DNA from: an uncultured Poribacteria bacterium
GTDB taxonomy: Bacteria > Poribacteria > WGA-4E > WGA-3G
DNA: 64,000 nucleotides
Direction of reading: 5' to 3'
Assembly: GCA_951813565.1 (NCBI GenBank)
Contig: OX638351.1
Span: forward strand, 896,001 to 960,000
Positions 30,001-45,000 of the stretch are shown in pieces (positions within the stretch are counted from its first letter, which is position 1; the number at the start of each line of letters is the position of its first letter). A program made the position numbers.

Positions 30001-33000
30001 TATTTAGCGAACTCTCAAAAGGAGCGTGTAGAGCATTGTCCAAAAGACCCCAAGAGAAGTCCGCTATCTCTTGTTGTGTCGGGGTGCCTGTTAGAAAGGG
30101 CAAGAATGAACTGTTTTAAGTGAAACAGTGCCACTTCACAAAAAAGAATCTTGCCATCTAAAGCAGGTAAAAATCTGCAATAGATGAATGGGCGGGGCAT
30201 CGTCCATTGAAGGAGAGGATGGAAGACTTGCAAAGGCATTGCTGGCGCAAGCAGTCCTTGATGATAGCAGAATTTACCCAGTGCAGAGGACCTAAGAATC
30301 CCCCTGCTTTAGTTGGGGGAGTATGTTAAAAAATCAGTGTATTGTGTATGGGCGGTGTTAAATACCGCCCTTTCCTATCTCTATCCTCCTTTACCTCCAA
30401 AAATTTCTCTTTTTTGCAGAATTATGCAACCGTTTTCCTCCTAACTTGCGTCATTATAGTTTGATATATGATTTAATCAAACTATCGCTTTCTAGAGACA
30501 CTTAATGAAAAATGACGATGTTGCACTTATCAGACGAATTCTTGCTGGTAATGAAACCGCTTTCGCTGAACTTGTGAAAAAGTATCAAAAACAGGTTCAC
30601 GTTCTGGCGTGGCGAAAAATCGGAGATTTCCATATCGCTGAGGACATTACCCAGGATGTCTTTCTGAAAGTGTATCAGCAACTTCATGCCCTGAAAAATC
30701 CGAAACAGTTTTCCGGATGGCTCTATGTGATAACGACACGTCTCTGTGCAACGTGCCTACGCAAAAATCGGATTCAGACGCAACCGTTGGAGGACACAGA
30801 GATAACAATGATACAGAGTGATGCCTATTCACAACATGTCGTAGAGGAGCGGGCAAACACTGCAGTTGAAACACAACGTGAAGTGGTCAAGAGACTACTC
30901 GCTAAGTTGAAAGAGAGCGAACGCACGGTGATGGCGCTCCACTATCTCGGTGAGATGACAGTTGAAGAGATCAGCAAGTTTTTAGGGGTTTCTGCAGGAA
31001 CGATTAAGAGTCGGCTACAACGTGCGCGAAACCGTTTACAAAAGGAGGAAACGATGATTAGAGAAGCACTCGACCATTTCCAAATTTCACCGAACCTGAC
31101 CGATAACATTATGCGAGAAGTTGCTCGACTTAAACCTATCGCACCTTCTGGTGGTAAGCCACTGGTGCCGTGGGTGATAGGTGCCGCAAGCGCAGTTTTG
31201 ATTGTATTAATGCTTGGCATAGGCAGTCAATACTTAACACATTTTCAGAAACCCTATAGTTTAGATGCGCAAGCTGAAACGGCGGTTGAACTCGTTGATG
31301 CGCCTATTGTGCTAAATCTTGAGGCGACGCCAGATGTTCGTCGTCAGTTTGGGAATATAAATGCACTTGGTCCAAGCGATAACAATGGACAGAAACCTGA
31401 TGAAATATTATTAGCCGCCGCGCAGTCTGAGGGAGAAGATATTGCTGCCGCCAAACAGCAGTGGATTCAGTCTGAACCTGTCAAAGGAAGTGCGGTGAAA
31501 AGTTTACTTGCGACGCCCGAGGGGGAGCTCTACGTTCTTGATCCTGATCTAAGAATCTACAAATTGCCTGTCAATGGAAAGAGGTGGCAACATATCTTTA
31601 ACGCGGGTTCATTGAAAACCTTGTGGGCAACGTCCCCACGCATCGCAAAGTGGAAAAATACCCTCTACATTATATCATTAAACGAACTCTTTGCTTCAAA
31701 TGATGATGGTAAGACATGGGATTTGGTATATTCTTGGTCTAAAGTAGGACATGCCCAGATTGCCCCAATTGAATTGATACTTACAGAACATGCGTTTTAT
31801 GCCGCTTTTGAAAGCGGCATTTTTCGTTCTGAGGATAAAGGTAAAACCTGGAAAGCACTGAGTAAAGGTTTGAGGGGAAGAATTAGTGCTTTAGTCAAGA
31901 TTCAGCATGTCCTTTTTACTGCAACAGACACTGGACTCTACCGACTCGATCCTGATCTTGAGATTTGGGAACACTTAAAGTTACCAATTTCTTTAATTGG
32001 GCGGTTAATCTCAGTTACAGCGACTGAAGAAAAGCTTTATGTTGCGGTAGAGTTGATGCCGAACGAGGTAGAGCCTCAGGATGATTCGAGGATATTCCGT
32101 TCAGGTGGTTTGGGAATATTTCGCTCAACTGACCTCGGGGACTCGTGGAAAGATATAACCCCTACAAACTCCTGGTCCCTAAAGGGTGGGGCACCCACTC
32201 TCAAACTTGTTGCTGCTGGTGAAATACTCTTGGCGATGGAACATGGTATGTTACGCTCCATAGATGGTGGAAACACATGGGCACCCTTGCAATTACCAGG
32301 AACCTCTCCTTATATGGCATCTCATTATAATGCTGTGGTGAACAAAAACACCATTTATGTTGGCAGCAGTGACGGCCTCCATTGTTCCACTAATGGTGGT
32401 AAATCCTGGGATATAGTCCGGATCACTCAGGATAAGAGGCGGCGAGGAATGCACAACATAATCGCGTATAAGGGGAACAATAAACGGCAAAACATGCCGC
32501 CGACGCTCTATGTGGGAGTTGGACAAGAGATAGTAAAAACTACCGACAAAGGCAAATCTTGGGAAACTATTAAGAGACCCAACAGAAGAGAATCAGCGTT
32601 TTTTACTCAGATGATCAAATCTGATGAGATTGTCTATACAAAAGTTAAGAATTTTGATAATATGCTTATCAATCGCGTATCTGCAGACGGTAATACGTTA
32701 GCGCCGATTCAAGGAATGCCTATTCTTGATTTAATAACATCGGACGACTTGTTTGACTGTGAGGTGCCAGATGATCAGTTGCCTCAAAAGGTCTCTGGTG
32801 AACAGTTGCAAGAAAGTTTTTCTGGCGCAACTCAGTTCTTCAAACAATTGGATCAAATATTGCCTCAATATCTGGATATATATATCCAATTAGGGTATCA
32901 AGGATCATTTGCAGTCAGTGGTGATACCTTCTATATGGAATATAACTTTAAGCTCTTCCGATGGGAACCGGGTGATACTGAATGGTACGACACCGAACAG

Positions 33001-42000: not shown

Positions 42001-45000
42001 TAGATCCTCGTAAAGTAGAACGAGGACTGGAGCGTGGTTGGTGGATATTCCGCTCAACGGACCTCGGTGATTCGTGGGATGATATAACGCCGACAAACGC
42101 TTGGCCCGTAAACGGATGGCCACCCGGAATCGAACTTATTGCTGTAGGTGAAACACTTCTGGCGATGGAAGATGGTATGGTACGCTCTATTGATGGAGGA
42201 GATAAATGGATGCCGCCGCAGACACCCCGCACTTCCCCTTCAACGATTAGTGGATTGCCTACTGTCGCTTTAAACGAACGGACTTTTTATGTGCATAGCT
42301 GGGACGGTCTCCATCGTTCTACTGACGGAGGGAAATCATGGAACAAGGTGAATATCCCTAAGGAGAAGGAAACGAATCCAATAGACAATTTAATCGTCCA
42401 TCACGGAGGTGATAAAGGGGGAAAAATGCTTTCGACCCTCTACACGACATCTGGACTTGGACACGGGAAATGGATAAAAAAAATAGTAAAAACTACCGAC
42501 AAAGGCGAATCTTGGGAAACTATTAAGATGGAAATACCAATGGGAACGCCTAAAAGAGAAGAACAACCGAGTATTAGTCAGATAGTCAAATCTGGTAGTG
42601 TCATTTATGCCAAAGGTGGAATTCCAGGTAACGTAAATAATCGTTTCTATCGTGTATCTGATGACAATAGACTTGTCCTGCTTCAAGGAATACCCACCCT
42701 TGATTCAAAGTCATTAAGAAATCAAGTGTTATTTAGGAGTCAACCTATTGAAAATCTTTCTGTTGAATATCTGCAAGAAAACTTTTCTGGCGCAACCCAA
42801 TTCTTCAAACAGTTAGCACAAGGAGATGTTCAGCAACATAGAGTACGTCTTGAAGAACTTATCCATCTGGGGTTTCGGGGGACTTTTGCGGTTAGTGATG
42901 ATACATTCTATATGGAGTATAACCTTAAACTCTTTCGATGGGAATCTGGTGATACAGAATGGCAAGACATCGGACAAGAAGTAACTTCACCTAGCAGAGG
43001 GAAAGCGCTCAAACTTGCAGCATCAGGGAACACTGTTTACGTCGGGAAACGGGATGGACACCTCGTCGTATCGTTTGATAGAGGAACTAATTGGATTGAT
43101 CTTACGCCAGCGCTGCCGTTTCCATTTAAAACTTTCAAAGAGATCGTATTTGCGGATTCTACGGTGTATGTAGCGACAGATGCTGGTGTCACTACATCGG
43201 ATGATGGGAGAACTTGGCGTACCATCACTGATGCAGAGGGGACCAATCTCGTCATGGAACATTTAGCTGCTGATGGTACAAAGGTTTATGGCGTTACTGA
43301 AAACACGGGTGCCTATCGCTTGGAAAGCGGGACTTGGGAAAAGGTTGTTTCAGAGATACCTGATAACGTAACTTCTCTTGCTGTTGATGGAGAGACATTA
43401 TATATAGGCACGCAAAGCAACGGTATGCTTTATTACAATTTTGAAGAATAAACCAAATCAATGCTGAATGCGACAAATGCCGTACATGCATTAGCGTTTA
43501 GCATTCGGTGTCTCATAATAGATGTCTACTTCTCCTACAAGAAGATAGTCGCGACCAGGAGGTCGCTCCTACAGGAAGAAGTTTGGACTTATAAAGTACG
43601 TCTACAACGTACAAATTGACCTTAAAGTTCCGCGCTGACAGTCATCTCTAAGCGATGTTCAGGTTTGCGCTGTTTTGTTGAGAGAAGGCGGTAATTGAGT
43701 CTAAATAGTAGATCGGTAAATTTGCGTAACCTATAATCCGCAGTGGCGCGCACTTCATGGCTGATGCCTTCGTAAAAATAGTATTGTGCGAAAGGGATAC
43801 CGCCATCGCTTTTACCATAGCCGAGTGTATGGTTTACATCAATACGACCCTTACCGAAAATACTATATGTTAAGCGATTTTCAAAGGAAAAGGTACGTGT
43901 TTTTGCTGTAGACTCTTCGTCAAGTTTTTCTATGTCAGTTGTGCGTTTGTATCCTCCGATACCACTCCATCGTATCGAGCGACTCAGTTCATACTGGAGT
44001 TTTAATTCTGTTATCTGTTCAAATTGACGGAGGTCGGAGATGGGTGTTGATGAAAATAAATCAGGATCGGTAACCGTTCCCTTTTCTGTTCCATCGGGGT
44101 TGGAAACCCCTCCTAAGTCTATAAAGTTGAGTTGGCTATATTTTTCTGTTTCGCGGCGTTGCTCCCAGTTTGCACCGACTGAGAGACGTTGCGTTGGATT
44201 TACTGAGAAAGCAACATCCCACGTTCTATGATTTCTCAGCCGTTCTTGTGTGTTAATCCGTCGATTGAGTGTGCGTCCAGTCCTAAGATTGACTTCAAAA
44301 CTGAACAGAGGTGAAGGTGAAAATTCAACCCGATGATGTTGGTTAACGCGTCCGAAAAGCGTTTGTGAACCTTGTAAGCTTTGGAGTAGATAGAGGGATA
44401 TAGTATCTTCTGCTTCCTGTTCCTCTGTTAACCATAGGCGTGTCTGGATTCTGAGTGCATTTAAGAACCACGTAAATGGTTGTCGGTTTTTGGTTGTCGG
44501 TTTTTGGTTGTCGGTGTTAGTGGTTGGGGGAAGATTACCTCGCCCCATGAAATCTGTTCTGGTGGAATTGCGTTGATTTCGGGCGCGGCGGGCGAAAAAC
44601 TGACGCGGTTGGACACGGAGTCGAAAGGCAGCATCAACCGCTGTTGTCGGTCTATCCCCTACATTCTGGTAAATTTTGATGTACGTTCCTTCCTCCGGAT
44701 CTTCTACATAGCGCAAATCATCTAATCTGACATAATACCCTTCACCGGGCTGGATTCTATTTCCAGTGAGCGGATGAATATCGGTGTAGATTTCACGACG
44801 TTGTGTTGTCAGTTTTTTATCCAATTCATAAGTAATTTCAGCATCAATCGCACGACTGAACGGTGTTAATTGGATTGTTGCATCCGCTAATTGTGTTGTT
44901 GTATCTGTGCCACGTTCAGAATGCGCCTTCACCATGCGGCGTGCGAGATTTGTTTTCATATTTATCCATTGTCCTTGCTGTGAAAAGACTCCGGCTTTCC

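Follow-up and report, generated by a model that had tools for sequence, protein, structure and literature searches.

Nested loss of transcriptional regulators and a multiplied family of propeller-fused ECF sigma factors in Poribacteria

An uncultured Poribacteria bacterium with a genome of 5.43 Mb (95% complete, about 4,480 predicted genes) has no LacI, GntR, LysR, TetR or AraC regulator and carries 29 full members of one clade of extended ECF sigma factors. We consider it probable that two separate processes are involved, a nested loss of regulators and the independent rise of a self-amplifying ECF family that senses the envelope. The lineage, whose genomes measure 4-7 Mb, would always have been poor in metabolite-sensing regulators, and the single-copy ones would have been lost in nested steps. 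Separately, one ECF type, consisting of its own promoter, a sigma domain, a membrane helix and an extracytoplasmic double propeller, would have multiplied in two genera.

Coordinates of array and dnaK features are positions in the window, the 64,000-nt stretch of DNA analyzed, whose position 1 is position 896,001 of contig OX638351.1 (GCA_951813565.1). The comparison set was 151 genomes of the phylum, with 99 others from the same family (f1), 10 from family f2 and 26 from family f3.

Absent and remaining regulators

The absence of the five families, and of LexA, HrcA, NrdR and ArgR, had been proposed in the initial annotation, and profile searches bore it out. There was no match in this genome to the profiles for LysR, TetR, AraC, LexA, HrcA, NrdR or ArgR, which matched 13, 13, 8, 6, 7, 9 and 9 of 14 positive controls, respectively. 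The LacI profile had a single match, below the cut-off, at 3643797, which is the helix-turn-helix of RpoN. Another candidate, at 2543080, is a Peripla_BP_4 protein without a helix-turn-helix; neither protein combines a sugar-binding domain with the N-terminal LacI helix-turn-helix, as members of the family do. The GntR profile also had a single match, partial (10-58) and at 27.1 bits against a cut-off of 27, in a 242-aa protein (3113382-3114110). This is not a GntR protein: its best Pfam match is the ArsR-type HTH_5 (E 3e-10), it does not match the GntR profile of the relatives, and it does not show the complete GntR winged helix with an FCD, UTRA or comparable effector domain. It looks SufR-like.

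Highly diverged regulators might have escaped such profiles. Profiles built from the relatives' own regulators recovered none among 24,456 ORFs (--max), with one of the three LysR rows being a wrong-strand ORF. That the absences are artefacts of incomplete assembly or diverged sequences is extremely improbable. The completeness of 95%, not 100%, would allow it, but the same absences are found in dozens of relatives, many of them single-contig, the synteny gaps are clean, the HrcA operator CIRCE disappears along with HrcA, and lineage-specific profiles recover nothing.

The losses are nested. LacI, LysR and AraC are scarce phylum-wide, with matches over the cut-off in 4, 7 and 7 of the 151 genomes, and ArgR was found in none of them; within the family, LysR and AraC matches occur only in fragmented assemblies (G072, G146 and G051). 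Three losses are at the family level. Strong GntR matches were found in 0 of 99 f1 genomes as against 6 of 10 in f2 and 25 of 26 in f3, HrcA in 0 of 99 as against 9 of 10 and 25 of 26, and NrdR in 0 of 99 as against 10/10, 26/26 and 4/4 outside f1. CIRCE tracks HrcA (2/99 in f1, 9/10 in f2 and 26/26 in f3). Two losses are at the genus level: LexA is in 0 of 37 congeners versus 56 of 57 genomes of the sister genus. The reported absence of TetR holds for this genome but needs correction to a genus-level loss, with a match in just one of 37 congeners and in all 57 genomes of the sister genus. The genes that border lexA in relatives lie 80 bp apart here, and those that border hrcA lie 71 bp apart. 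Candidate LexA-box strings from lexA upstream regions yielded nothing interpretable. In the literature searched, there was no report of these losses, of their map across the phylum or of the ECF clade.

In PMC5882156, averages over 761 genomes are given as 15.9 TetR and 15.26 LysR per genome, about 8 each in the AraC/GntR group and about 4 in the LacI group. Against this typical complement, this genome has none of the five families in its about 4,480 genes. It resembles that complement in keeping Fur, MarR, ArsR-type, Crp-like, Fis-type, OmpR-type and Xre regulators, each in one to a few copies.

A partial census, covering 286 of 854 candidates by Pfam, found about 14 one-component regulators, 7 sigma54 activators and one OmpR-type regulator. 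Protein 790389, at first read as a sigma54 activator, is a histidine kinase. Further regulators may remain because the helix-turn-helix score ranked the known OmpR-type protein low and Fur and BlaI surfaced late. Other regulatory genes encode two REC-SpoIIE proteins, an ANTAR protein, Pup ligase and proteasome proteins, 7 STAS-family proteins and about 15 stand-alone ECFs, and there are two orphan proteins that resemble helix-turn-helix regulators and match no Pfam family well. The sigma-70-family genes are more numerous than the remaining regulators found, as claimed initially. The earlier count of 53 such genes corresponds to 53 Sigma70_r2 matches in 52 ORFs, of which one is below the cut-off and one is a 79-aa fragment.

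The tandem array and the ECF clade

Four tandem ECF genes had been noted in the window, and all four are confirmed as ORFs:

30425..30452, + strand: ECF-clade promoter of gene 1 (TGCA(A/C)C ... CGTC), motif match
30505..33486, + strand: ECF gene 1, 993 aa; sigma r2 and r4, one predicted membrane helix, Asp-box/Vps10-like propeller module
33673..33700, + strand: sigma70-type promoter-like site (TTGACA, 16 nt, TAGAAT) 5′ of gene 2, read from sequence, putative function
33748..33775, + strand: ECF-clade promoter of gene 2, motif match
33769..36831, + strand: ECF gene 2, 1020 aa as called, likely start 33802; architecture as gene 1
37030..37057, + strand: ECF-clade promoter of gene 3, motif match
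37148..40123, + strand: ECF gene 3, 991 aa; hydrophobic helix at about aa 221-239
40322..40349, + strand: ECF-clade promoter of gene 4, identical to that of gene 3, motif match
40440..43451, + strand: ECF gene 4, 1003 aa, mosaic

The window contains four matches to the clade promoter, one per gene, where 0.47 were expected and 0 of 100 shuffles reached four. The sigma70-type element before gene 2 was also seen 5′ of two other clade genes. In a Pfam scan, genes 1 and 3 encode Sigma70_r2 (aa 23-89) and r4_2 (aa 126-178) followed by Sortilin-Vps10/PSII_BNR repeats; with sigma2 and sigma4 and no sigma1 or sigma3, they are ECF (group 4) proteins by domains.

Gene 4 is a mosaic in this assembly: its promoter and sigma domain are 97-100% identical to those of gene 3, and its sensor (about 41390-42840) is 96-100% identical to that of gene 2. 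Contigs of four runs from two studies span the array in short pieces, and the best of these may be from the source sample; one run has another joint in the array, from 43446 to 36827. At this site, relatives have 4, 3, 4, 1 or 0 genes.

The clade of about 30 members described initially exists, with 29 full members, but is not wholly recent, and its identities run from 44 to 99% (median 57%) instead of 55 to 99%. Two ECF-propellers of another family group with it (weak support, 82/31). The reported fusions to M61, redoxin, Gfo and crystallin domains are present. Cys81 is found in 29 of 29 members and Cys153 in 15. Sensors are of the WD40 type in 6/29 and of the Asp-box type in 14/29. Among the best 80 loci, 77 were in Poribacteria; the remaining 3 were listed simply as bacteria.

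The clade promoter reached at least 17 bits in leave-one-out scoring at 22 of 30 clade genes, and a genome scan placed it 5′ of 26 of 30. In relatives, it preceded 72 of 80 clade genes versus 0 of 80 coding controls. This bipartite ECF-type motif lies 5′ of the clade's own genes and is presumably used by these sigma factors. Other putative targets are some envelope genes and an HtrA-like protease, and, by reading of the sequence, a MoxR-like ATPase and ABC exporter genes. At 18 bits there were 56 real sites versus 5-22 with shuffled matrices, so the weak non-ECF targets are uncertain. The clade would act on its own genes and on genes for the envelope and for protein quality, and because members have a common promoter, many sensors would feed a single output. 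The family would have spread by tandem duplication and by recombination that swaps sensor parts, sometimes capturing other host domains.

The clade might be largely a self-propagating cassette, a gene with a self-activating promoter that, weakly selected, spreads through duplication and conversion, with many of the odd fusions as non-functional debris. Copy number within one genus runs from 0 to at least 22, the number of genes at the array site varies as given above, fragments and split genes occur, and in the Gfo fusion the enzyme is incomplete, with 141 aa following the sigma domain. Against this, long propeller frames are kept in 20 of 29 members and one hydrophobic membrane helix in 19, and the promoter also lies 5′ of non-ECF envelope genes. 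We regard the cassette reading as unlikely; it is compatible with the process of regulator loss in the lineage.

The closest known group is ECF57. PMC7826278 describes ECF57 as limited to Planctomycetes (5.3 copies per planctomycete genome), with a fused C-terminal extension, membrane helices, sometimes WD40 propellers, a completely conserved cysteine pair in sigma2 and sigma4, a promoter motif that is not conserved, and a proposed release from the membrane. The clade is similar in its C-terminal extension with a membrane helix, some WD40 modules, multiple copies and a conserved sigma2 cysteine. It differs, by that description, in its Poribacteria host, one helix instead of about two, up to 29 copies in tandem arrays, mostly Asp-box propeller sensors, a strongly conserved promoter, and a sigma4 cysteine in only 15 of 29 members. 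The clade is an unclassified ECF group with a known promoter; its sigma domain, too, could be released from the membrane.

Control of the catabolic genes

A Pfam search found 102 Gfo matches (101 in the earlier count), and protein clusters contained 115 PhyH proteins (121 in the earlier count) and 47 sulfatase proteins, the latter as claimed before. As genomes grow and their catabolic range widens, the number of regulators normally goes up. Repressors, along with SOS and heat-shock control, have been lost in stable niches by streamlined marine bacteria and by host-restricted symbionts; in contrast, the genomes of this lineage (4-7 Mb) are not reduced, and their catabolic families are kept or expanded.

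The suggestion that the multiplied ECFs took the place of the lost regulators was not supported. It would have the clade replace LacI/GntR/AraC-type regulators, with propellers that bind sponge glycans and released sigmas that activate catabolic genes in the manner of the hybrid two-component sensors of Bacteroides. Both expanded genera lie in the family with the most regulator loss, and f2 and f3 carry their own arrays of extended ECFs. The model of gene 3 aa 316-991 is an all-beta propeller module (pLDDT 85.4, pTM 0.78), whose best fold matches are GH74 glycanases, namely xyloglucanases (TM about 0.36-0.41, 12-16% identity), and the Bacteroides two-component sensor BT4673 (TM about 0.31). 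However, such low TM-scores indicate only a generic double propeller. In the genome scan, the clade promoter was found 5′ of none of the 115 PhyH, 94 Gfo and 47 sulfatase genes (0 of 256); counting downstream operon members, there was one PhyH among 67 genes. A single shared promoter, moreover, cannot yield pathway-specific output. Two relatives lack both the clade and any match over the cut-off to the five families: G032 (a single contig of 4.8 Mb, 95% complete), which has 94 Gfo matches, and G027, which has 51. Families with 0-6 clade matches already have few LacI, LysR or AraC regulators. From the motif scan and these two genomes we rejected the clade as catabolic regulator, and consider replacement very unlikely. 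With such fold matches, glycan sensing by the propellers is a possible function. The clade resembles BT4673, a hybrid two-component sensor, and GH74 enzymes in its predicted extracytoplasmic double beta-propeller (TM 0.3-0.4); unlike BT4673, its output is a sigma domain, and no link to a polysaccharide locus was found.

Sigma70-like sites preceded 12.0% of 217 catabolic operons and 12.2% of 1834 others (0-0.2% when shuffled), a near-consensus site being present in only 12% of operons. A search upstream of catabolic operons for a common operator or alternative promoter gave a best p of 8e-6, the same as in a random set; its positive control was circular, as ECF heads are defined by the motif, and many small separate regulons would escape it.

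Catabolism could instead be regulated by other layers: sigma54 activators, stand-alone ECFs with STAS/SpoIIE partner-switching, RNA elements, regulated proteolysis, or DNA-binding proteins whose fold is not recognised. The 7 full sigma54 activators and the REC-SpoIIE, ANTAR, Pup-proteasome, STAS-family and orphan genes listed above would suit this, as would the 17-35 Sigma70_r2 matches in genomes with few or no clade members. A strict sigma54 site, however, was found in only 1 of the 217 catabolic operons and a generic ECF site in 1, no motif is shared, and an Rfam scan of the 64-kb window had no matches. We find this account unlikely. Most likely, expression of the catabolic genes would be largely constitutive, from ordinary sigma70 promoters that respond little to individual substrates.

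In this lineage of dominant sponge symbionts, several catabolic families are kept at 100 copies or more, whereas the five largest families of regulators are dropped; the repressors of the SOS response, of heat shock and of ribonucleotide reductase are then lost stepwise. This series allows one to ask if a stable host niche, here perhaps the sponge, by itself removes the need for regulation. Tentatively, and with more doubt than confidence, we suggest that this bacterium, whose genome is not reduced, operates over 250 catabolic genes without a dedicated substrate-sensing transcription factor, an exception to the scaling of regulators with genome size. It would have instead dozens of tethered sigmas with glycanase-like propellers, reshuffled by recombination between strains and acting on one promoter, perhaps to sense damage to the envelope or the matrix of the host. 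The predictions are flat expression of catabolic genes, constitutive expression of groEL and repair genes, and sigma54-dependent chaperones; they bear on sponge heat stress and on Poribacteria culturing.

sigma54 and the chaperone genes

The initial annotation had mentioned neither sigma54, with its 7 activators and regulon, nor sigma54 promoters of chaperone genes. The genome has RpoN, activators and 36 intergenic -24/-12 sites at the correct spacing, as against 0-4 at five wrong spacings. In the window:

19668..19682, + strand: sigma54 -24/-12 promoter-like site before dnaK (in-window count not above chance, 21 of 100 shuffles)
19739..21661, + strand: dnaK, apart from grpE-dnaJ and without CIRCE

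sigma54 and its activators would drive dnaK, clpB, hsp20, groES and glnA, and groEL would be left on an operator-less sigma70 promoter, probably expressed constitutively. The groEL -35/-10 is the same as at 6 of 6 f2/f3 loci, and CIRCE is gone; where it could be checked in this way, the operator would have been lost along with the repressor.

sigma54-driven chaperones occur in other bacteria. Heat-shock regulons under sigma32 and CIRCE are described in PMC545781; compared with the HrcA/CIRCE regulon there, relatives have a consensus CIRCE before hrcA and groEL, or in some distant families before groES, whereas this family has neither repressor nor operator and its chaperone genes have sigma54 sites. 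sigma54 is not a wholesale substitute for HrcA: all 7 HrcA-positive f2/f3 genomes carry the groES site too, which is therefore ancestral there, not a replacement, and groEL has no sigma54 site. For dnaK alone, sigma54 possibly replaced HrcA control, in a promoter-shift comparison with one f3 locus; the sigma54-like site before dnaK is present in 5 of 5 relatives from the family.

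Regulators missing from G000 and its relatives

The Poribacteria genome G000 is a single contig (C1) of 5,426,982 bases with a completeness of 95.17%; the window spans C1:896001-960000. Profile searches for LysR, TetR, AraC, LexA, HrcA, NrdR and ArgR gave zero matches there, with positive controls. The LacI match was RpoN, a marginal GntR match (27.1 bits; cut-off 27) was an ArsR-type, SufR-like protein, and the sole LuxR match was a cross-hit within an ECF. Highly diverged regulators, whose possible escape the initial annotation had raised, were sought with profiles built from the phylum's own regulators, and no copy was found among 24,456 ORFs. 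Genes found on either side of lexA in two other Poribacteria (G065 and G025) are separated by 80 bp in G000; for the neighbours of hrcA in another (G031) the distance there is 71 bp. The absence of the nine families (these seven, LacI and GntR), as first annotated, is real.

The phylum-wide searches all ran on a single sample of 151 genomes, G000 and 150 others; of these 150, 99 were from its own family, f1 (37 from its own genus g1, 57 from the sister genus g2, five from g3-g5), 10 from f2, 26 from f3, 4 from f4 and 11 others. Because related genomes are not independent, family and genus counts are given without statistics. Strong GntR matches were found in 0/99 f1 genomes versus 25/26 in f3 and 6/10 in f2; HrcA in 0/99 versus 25/26 and 9/10; and NrdR in 0/99 versus 40/40 across the remainder of the order. 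LexA was present in 0/37 g1 genomes but 56/57 in g2. TetR, reported as absent from G000 and four congeners, was indeed absent from G000, while one of the 37 g1 genomes had a weak match, versus 57/57 in g2. The losses are thus nested, with GntR, HrcA and NrdR lost at the family level and LexA and TetR at the genus level. HrcA and LexA were each found in 0/4 f4 genomes. For LacI, LysR, AraC and ArgR, with 4, 7, 7 and 0 matches over the cut-off among the 151 genomes, ancestral poverty fits equally well as loss; three of the four LacI matches were full-length, all outside the order. PMC5882156 gives per-genome means of 15.9 for TetR and 15.26 for LysR (83,485 regulators across 761 genomes). The regulator poverty of this lineage is real, lineage-wide and surprising, and its order of loss is mapped.

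The regulators still present were counted from 854 candidates chosen by helix-turn-helix score or small soluble size, of which 674 were retrieved and the top 286 Pfam-scanned; family searches supplemented this census, and its totals are lower bounds. At least about 14 one-component regulators, antitoxins and transposases aside, were found (Fur, SufR-like, MarR, MerR-B12, Crp-like, BlaI, YebC, DUF2089 and six Xre); the initial annotation gave a dozen or so other HTH regulators. There were also at least seven sigma54 activators, six with a receiver domain, and at least one OmpR-type, one ANTAR and two REC-SpoIIE proteins. A putative partner-switching locus in the window (52711-58245) holds a HAMP histidine kinase (55223-57694), a REC-SpoIIE gene (53694-54950) and two STAS-family genes. 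G000 encodes a Pup-ligase domain and two proteasome subunits (L170:13029-13808, L081:12458-13165, L111:12178-12738), possibly a proteolytic control layer. Two small proteins, at C1 4150844 and 4154890, had high helix-turn-helix scores and no over-cut-off Pfam match.

Heat-shock promoters

CIRCE, the HrcA operator, follows HrcA, with sites in 2/99 f1 genomes (a single site in each), 9/10 in f2 and 26/26 in f3. In 6/6 f2/f3 loci a second CIRCE lies after the sigma70 promoter upstream of groEL; in G000 the -35 and -10 of groEL are the same, and the CIRCE is missing. The genes recA, uvrA and uvrB, identified by motif, are kept.

G000 has 71 strict sigma54 sites, 36 of them intergenic, versus 0-4 intergenic sites with wrong spacings; the initial annotation had overlooked this layer. 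Such -24/-12 sites lie upstream of dnaK (in the window), clpB, hsp20, groES and glnA, and also of an rsmH-like gene and several genes for exported proteins, all named by reading the sequence except groES, which was identified by a separate search. The loci on C1 that have these sites are:
915727 (window 19739)
3194735
4752595
4873508
2319301
3630294

The groES site was found in 9/9 f1 genomes with sequence (a tenth ended at a contig end), 3/3 in f2 and 4/4 in f3, and is therefore older than the loss of HrcA; f4 had it in 0/2, and one f5 genome had no strict match. The dnaK site was present in 5/5 f1 relatives, and at the single f3 locus examined dnaK was within a CIRCE operon. In G000, 0.7 Mb separates groEL (C1 4160084-4161733) from groES (4873508-4873798), and the two have promoters of different types; in the f2/f3 genomes examined they are likewise unlinked.

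The ECF clade and its tandem array

The array in the window consists of four ECF genes, and a fifth ORF marks its site:
30505..33486 (+), gene 1
33769..36831 (+), gene 2
37148..40123 (+), gene 3
40440..43451 (+), gene 4
43622-47362 (-), a 1246-aa ORF, no Pfam match, kept in 5/5 family relatives

The 53 sigma-70-family genes counted earlier correspond to 53 Sigma70_r2 matches in 52 ORFs. With a profile from the four window domains, 29 ORFs scored 226-394 bits and all others at most 124. The clade of about 30, annotated as recent, thus has 29 members, and in a 78-row tree its group takes in two f3 proteins with weak support (82/31). Identity within it was 44-99% (median 57%), not 55-99%. The best 80 loci for the window sigma domains were 77 from Candidatus Poribacteria and 3 from unnamed bacteria. 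The C-terminal modules are Asp-box propellers in 14 members, WD40 in six and other or none in nine. The last include the annotated M61, redoxin and crystallin fusions and a partial Gfo; three of these modules are 39-59% identical to stand-alone genes. A hydrophobic helix follows the sigma domain in 19/29. The predicted structure of the gene 3 sensor is all-beta propellers (pLDDT 85.4), with low-score fold matches to GH74 enzymes and BT4673, a Bacteroides hybrid two-component sensor.

In this assembly gene 4 combines the promoter and sigma domain of gene 3 with the sensor of gene 2. The array varies among relatives, and two other Poribacteria, G027 and G032, have no array genes at this site. 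Genomes of f2 and f3 carry independent tandem arrays (L213, L214, L215) whose extended ECFs (1070-1250 aa and 280-590 aa) branch elsewhere in the tree. Interspersed repeat families (24-mers in 59-139 copies) occur genome-wide, some close to the array ends. Two different ECFs carry the Gfo and crystallin modules, and the stand-alone genes most closely related to these modules lie near each other at C1 3571703-3575318.

As described in PMC7826278 and its supplement, the Planctomycetes group ECF57 works like this clade but differs in taxon, cysteine pair and promoter. The portions of PMC8546597, PMC5087111 and PMC3909097 available contain neither the word 'sigma' nor any statement about loss of regulators; PhyH expansion in Poribacteria is already described among them. 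We found no report of the loss or the clade, though subscription papers, supplements and one key Poribacteria paper may hold one.

Regulator loss, catabolism and the clade promoter

The initial annotation linked the ECF expansion to regulator loss. At least 22 clade matches occurred in 31/37 g1 and 42/57 g2 genomes, with 0-3 in g3-g5, 0-5 in f2 and 0-6 in f3. G027 and G032 lack both the clade and the five regulator families; they have 51 and 94 Gfo and 17 and 23 Sigma70_r2 matches. The distribution of the clade does not follow that of the losses, and its expansion is separate.

Among 4,480 predicted genes, G000 has 47 in the sulfatase cluster, as annotated, 115 in the PhyH cluster and 102 Gfo matches rather than 101. 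A motif (TATGCA(A/C)C..TTT, 10-11 nt, CGCGTCA) stands upstream of clade genes, in most cases at a distance of 23-50 nt. It scored at least 17 bits (leave-one-out) for 22/30 clade genes and at least 16 bits upstream of 72/80 relatives' genes, versus 0/80 coding controls. At 12 bits genome-wide it preceded 67 genes, including 26/30 clade genes, but 0/115 PhyH, 0/94 Gfo, 0/47 sulfatase and 0/68 LamG genes. Including genes further along the operons, at 16 bits, gained one PhyH, and sites farther from gene starts gained no close catabolic gene. Other genes with the motif encode an HtrA-like protease and, as named by reading the sequence, a MoxR-like ATPase operon, ABC exporters and exported proteins. 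Sigma70-like sites occurred upstream of catabolic operons at the genome-wide rate, and no motif common to these operons was found. Judging from sequence, the clade appears not to control catabolism, and the proposed link is not supported.

A near-perfect clade promoter (34.5 bits) at C1 3720744 has no same-strand predicted gene for 850 nt and may mark a lost gene or a small RNA. In a soluble ECF pair (C1 2058892-2061637), the C-terminal module ends in a winged helix-turn-helix-like stretch with no Pfam match.
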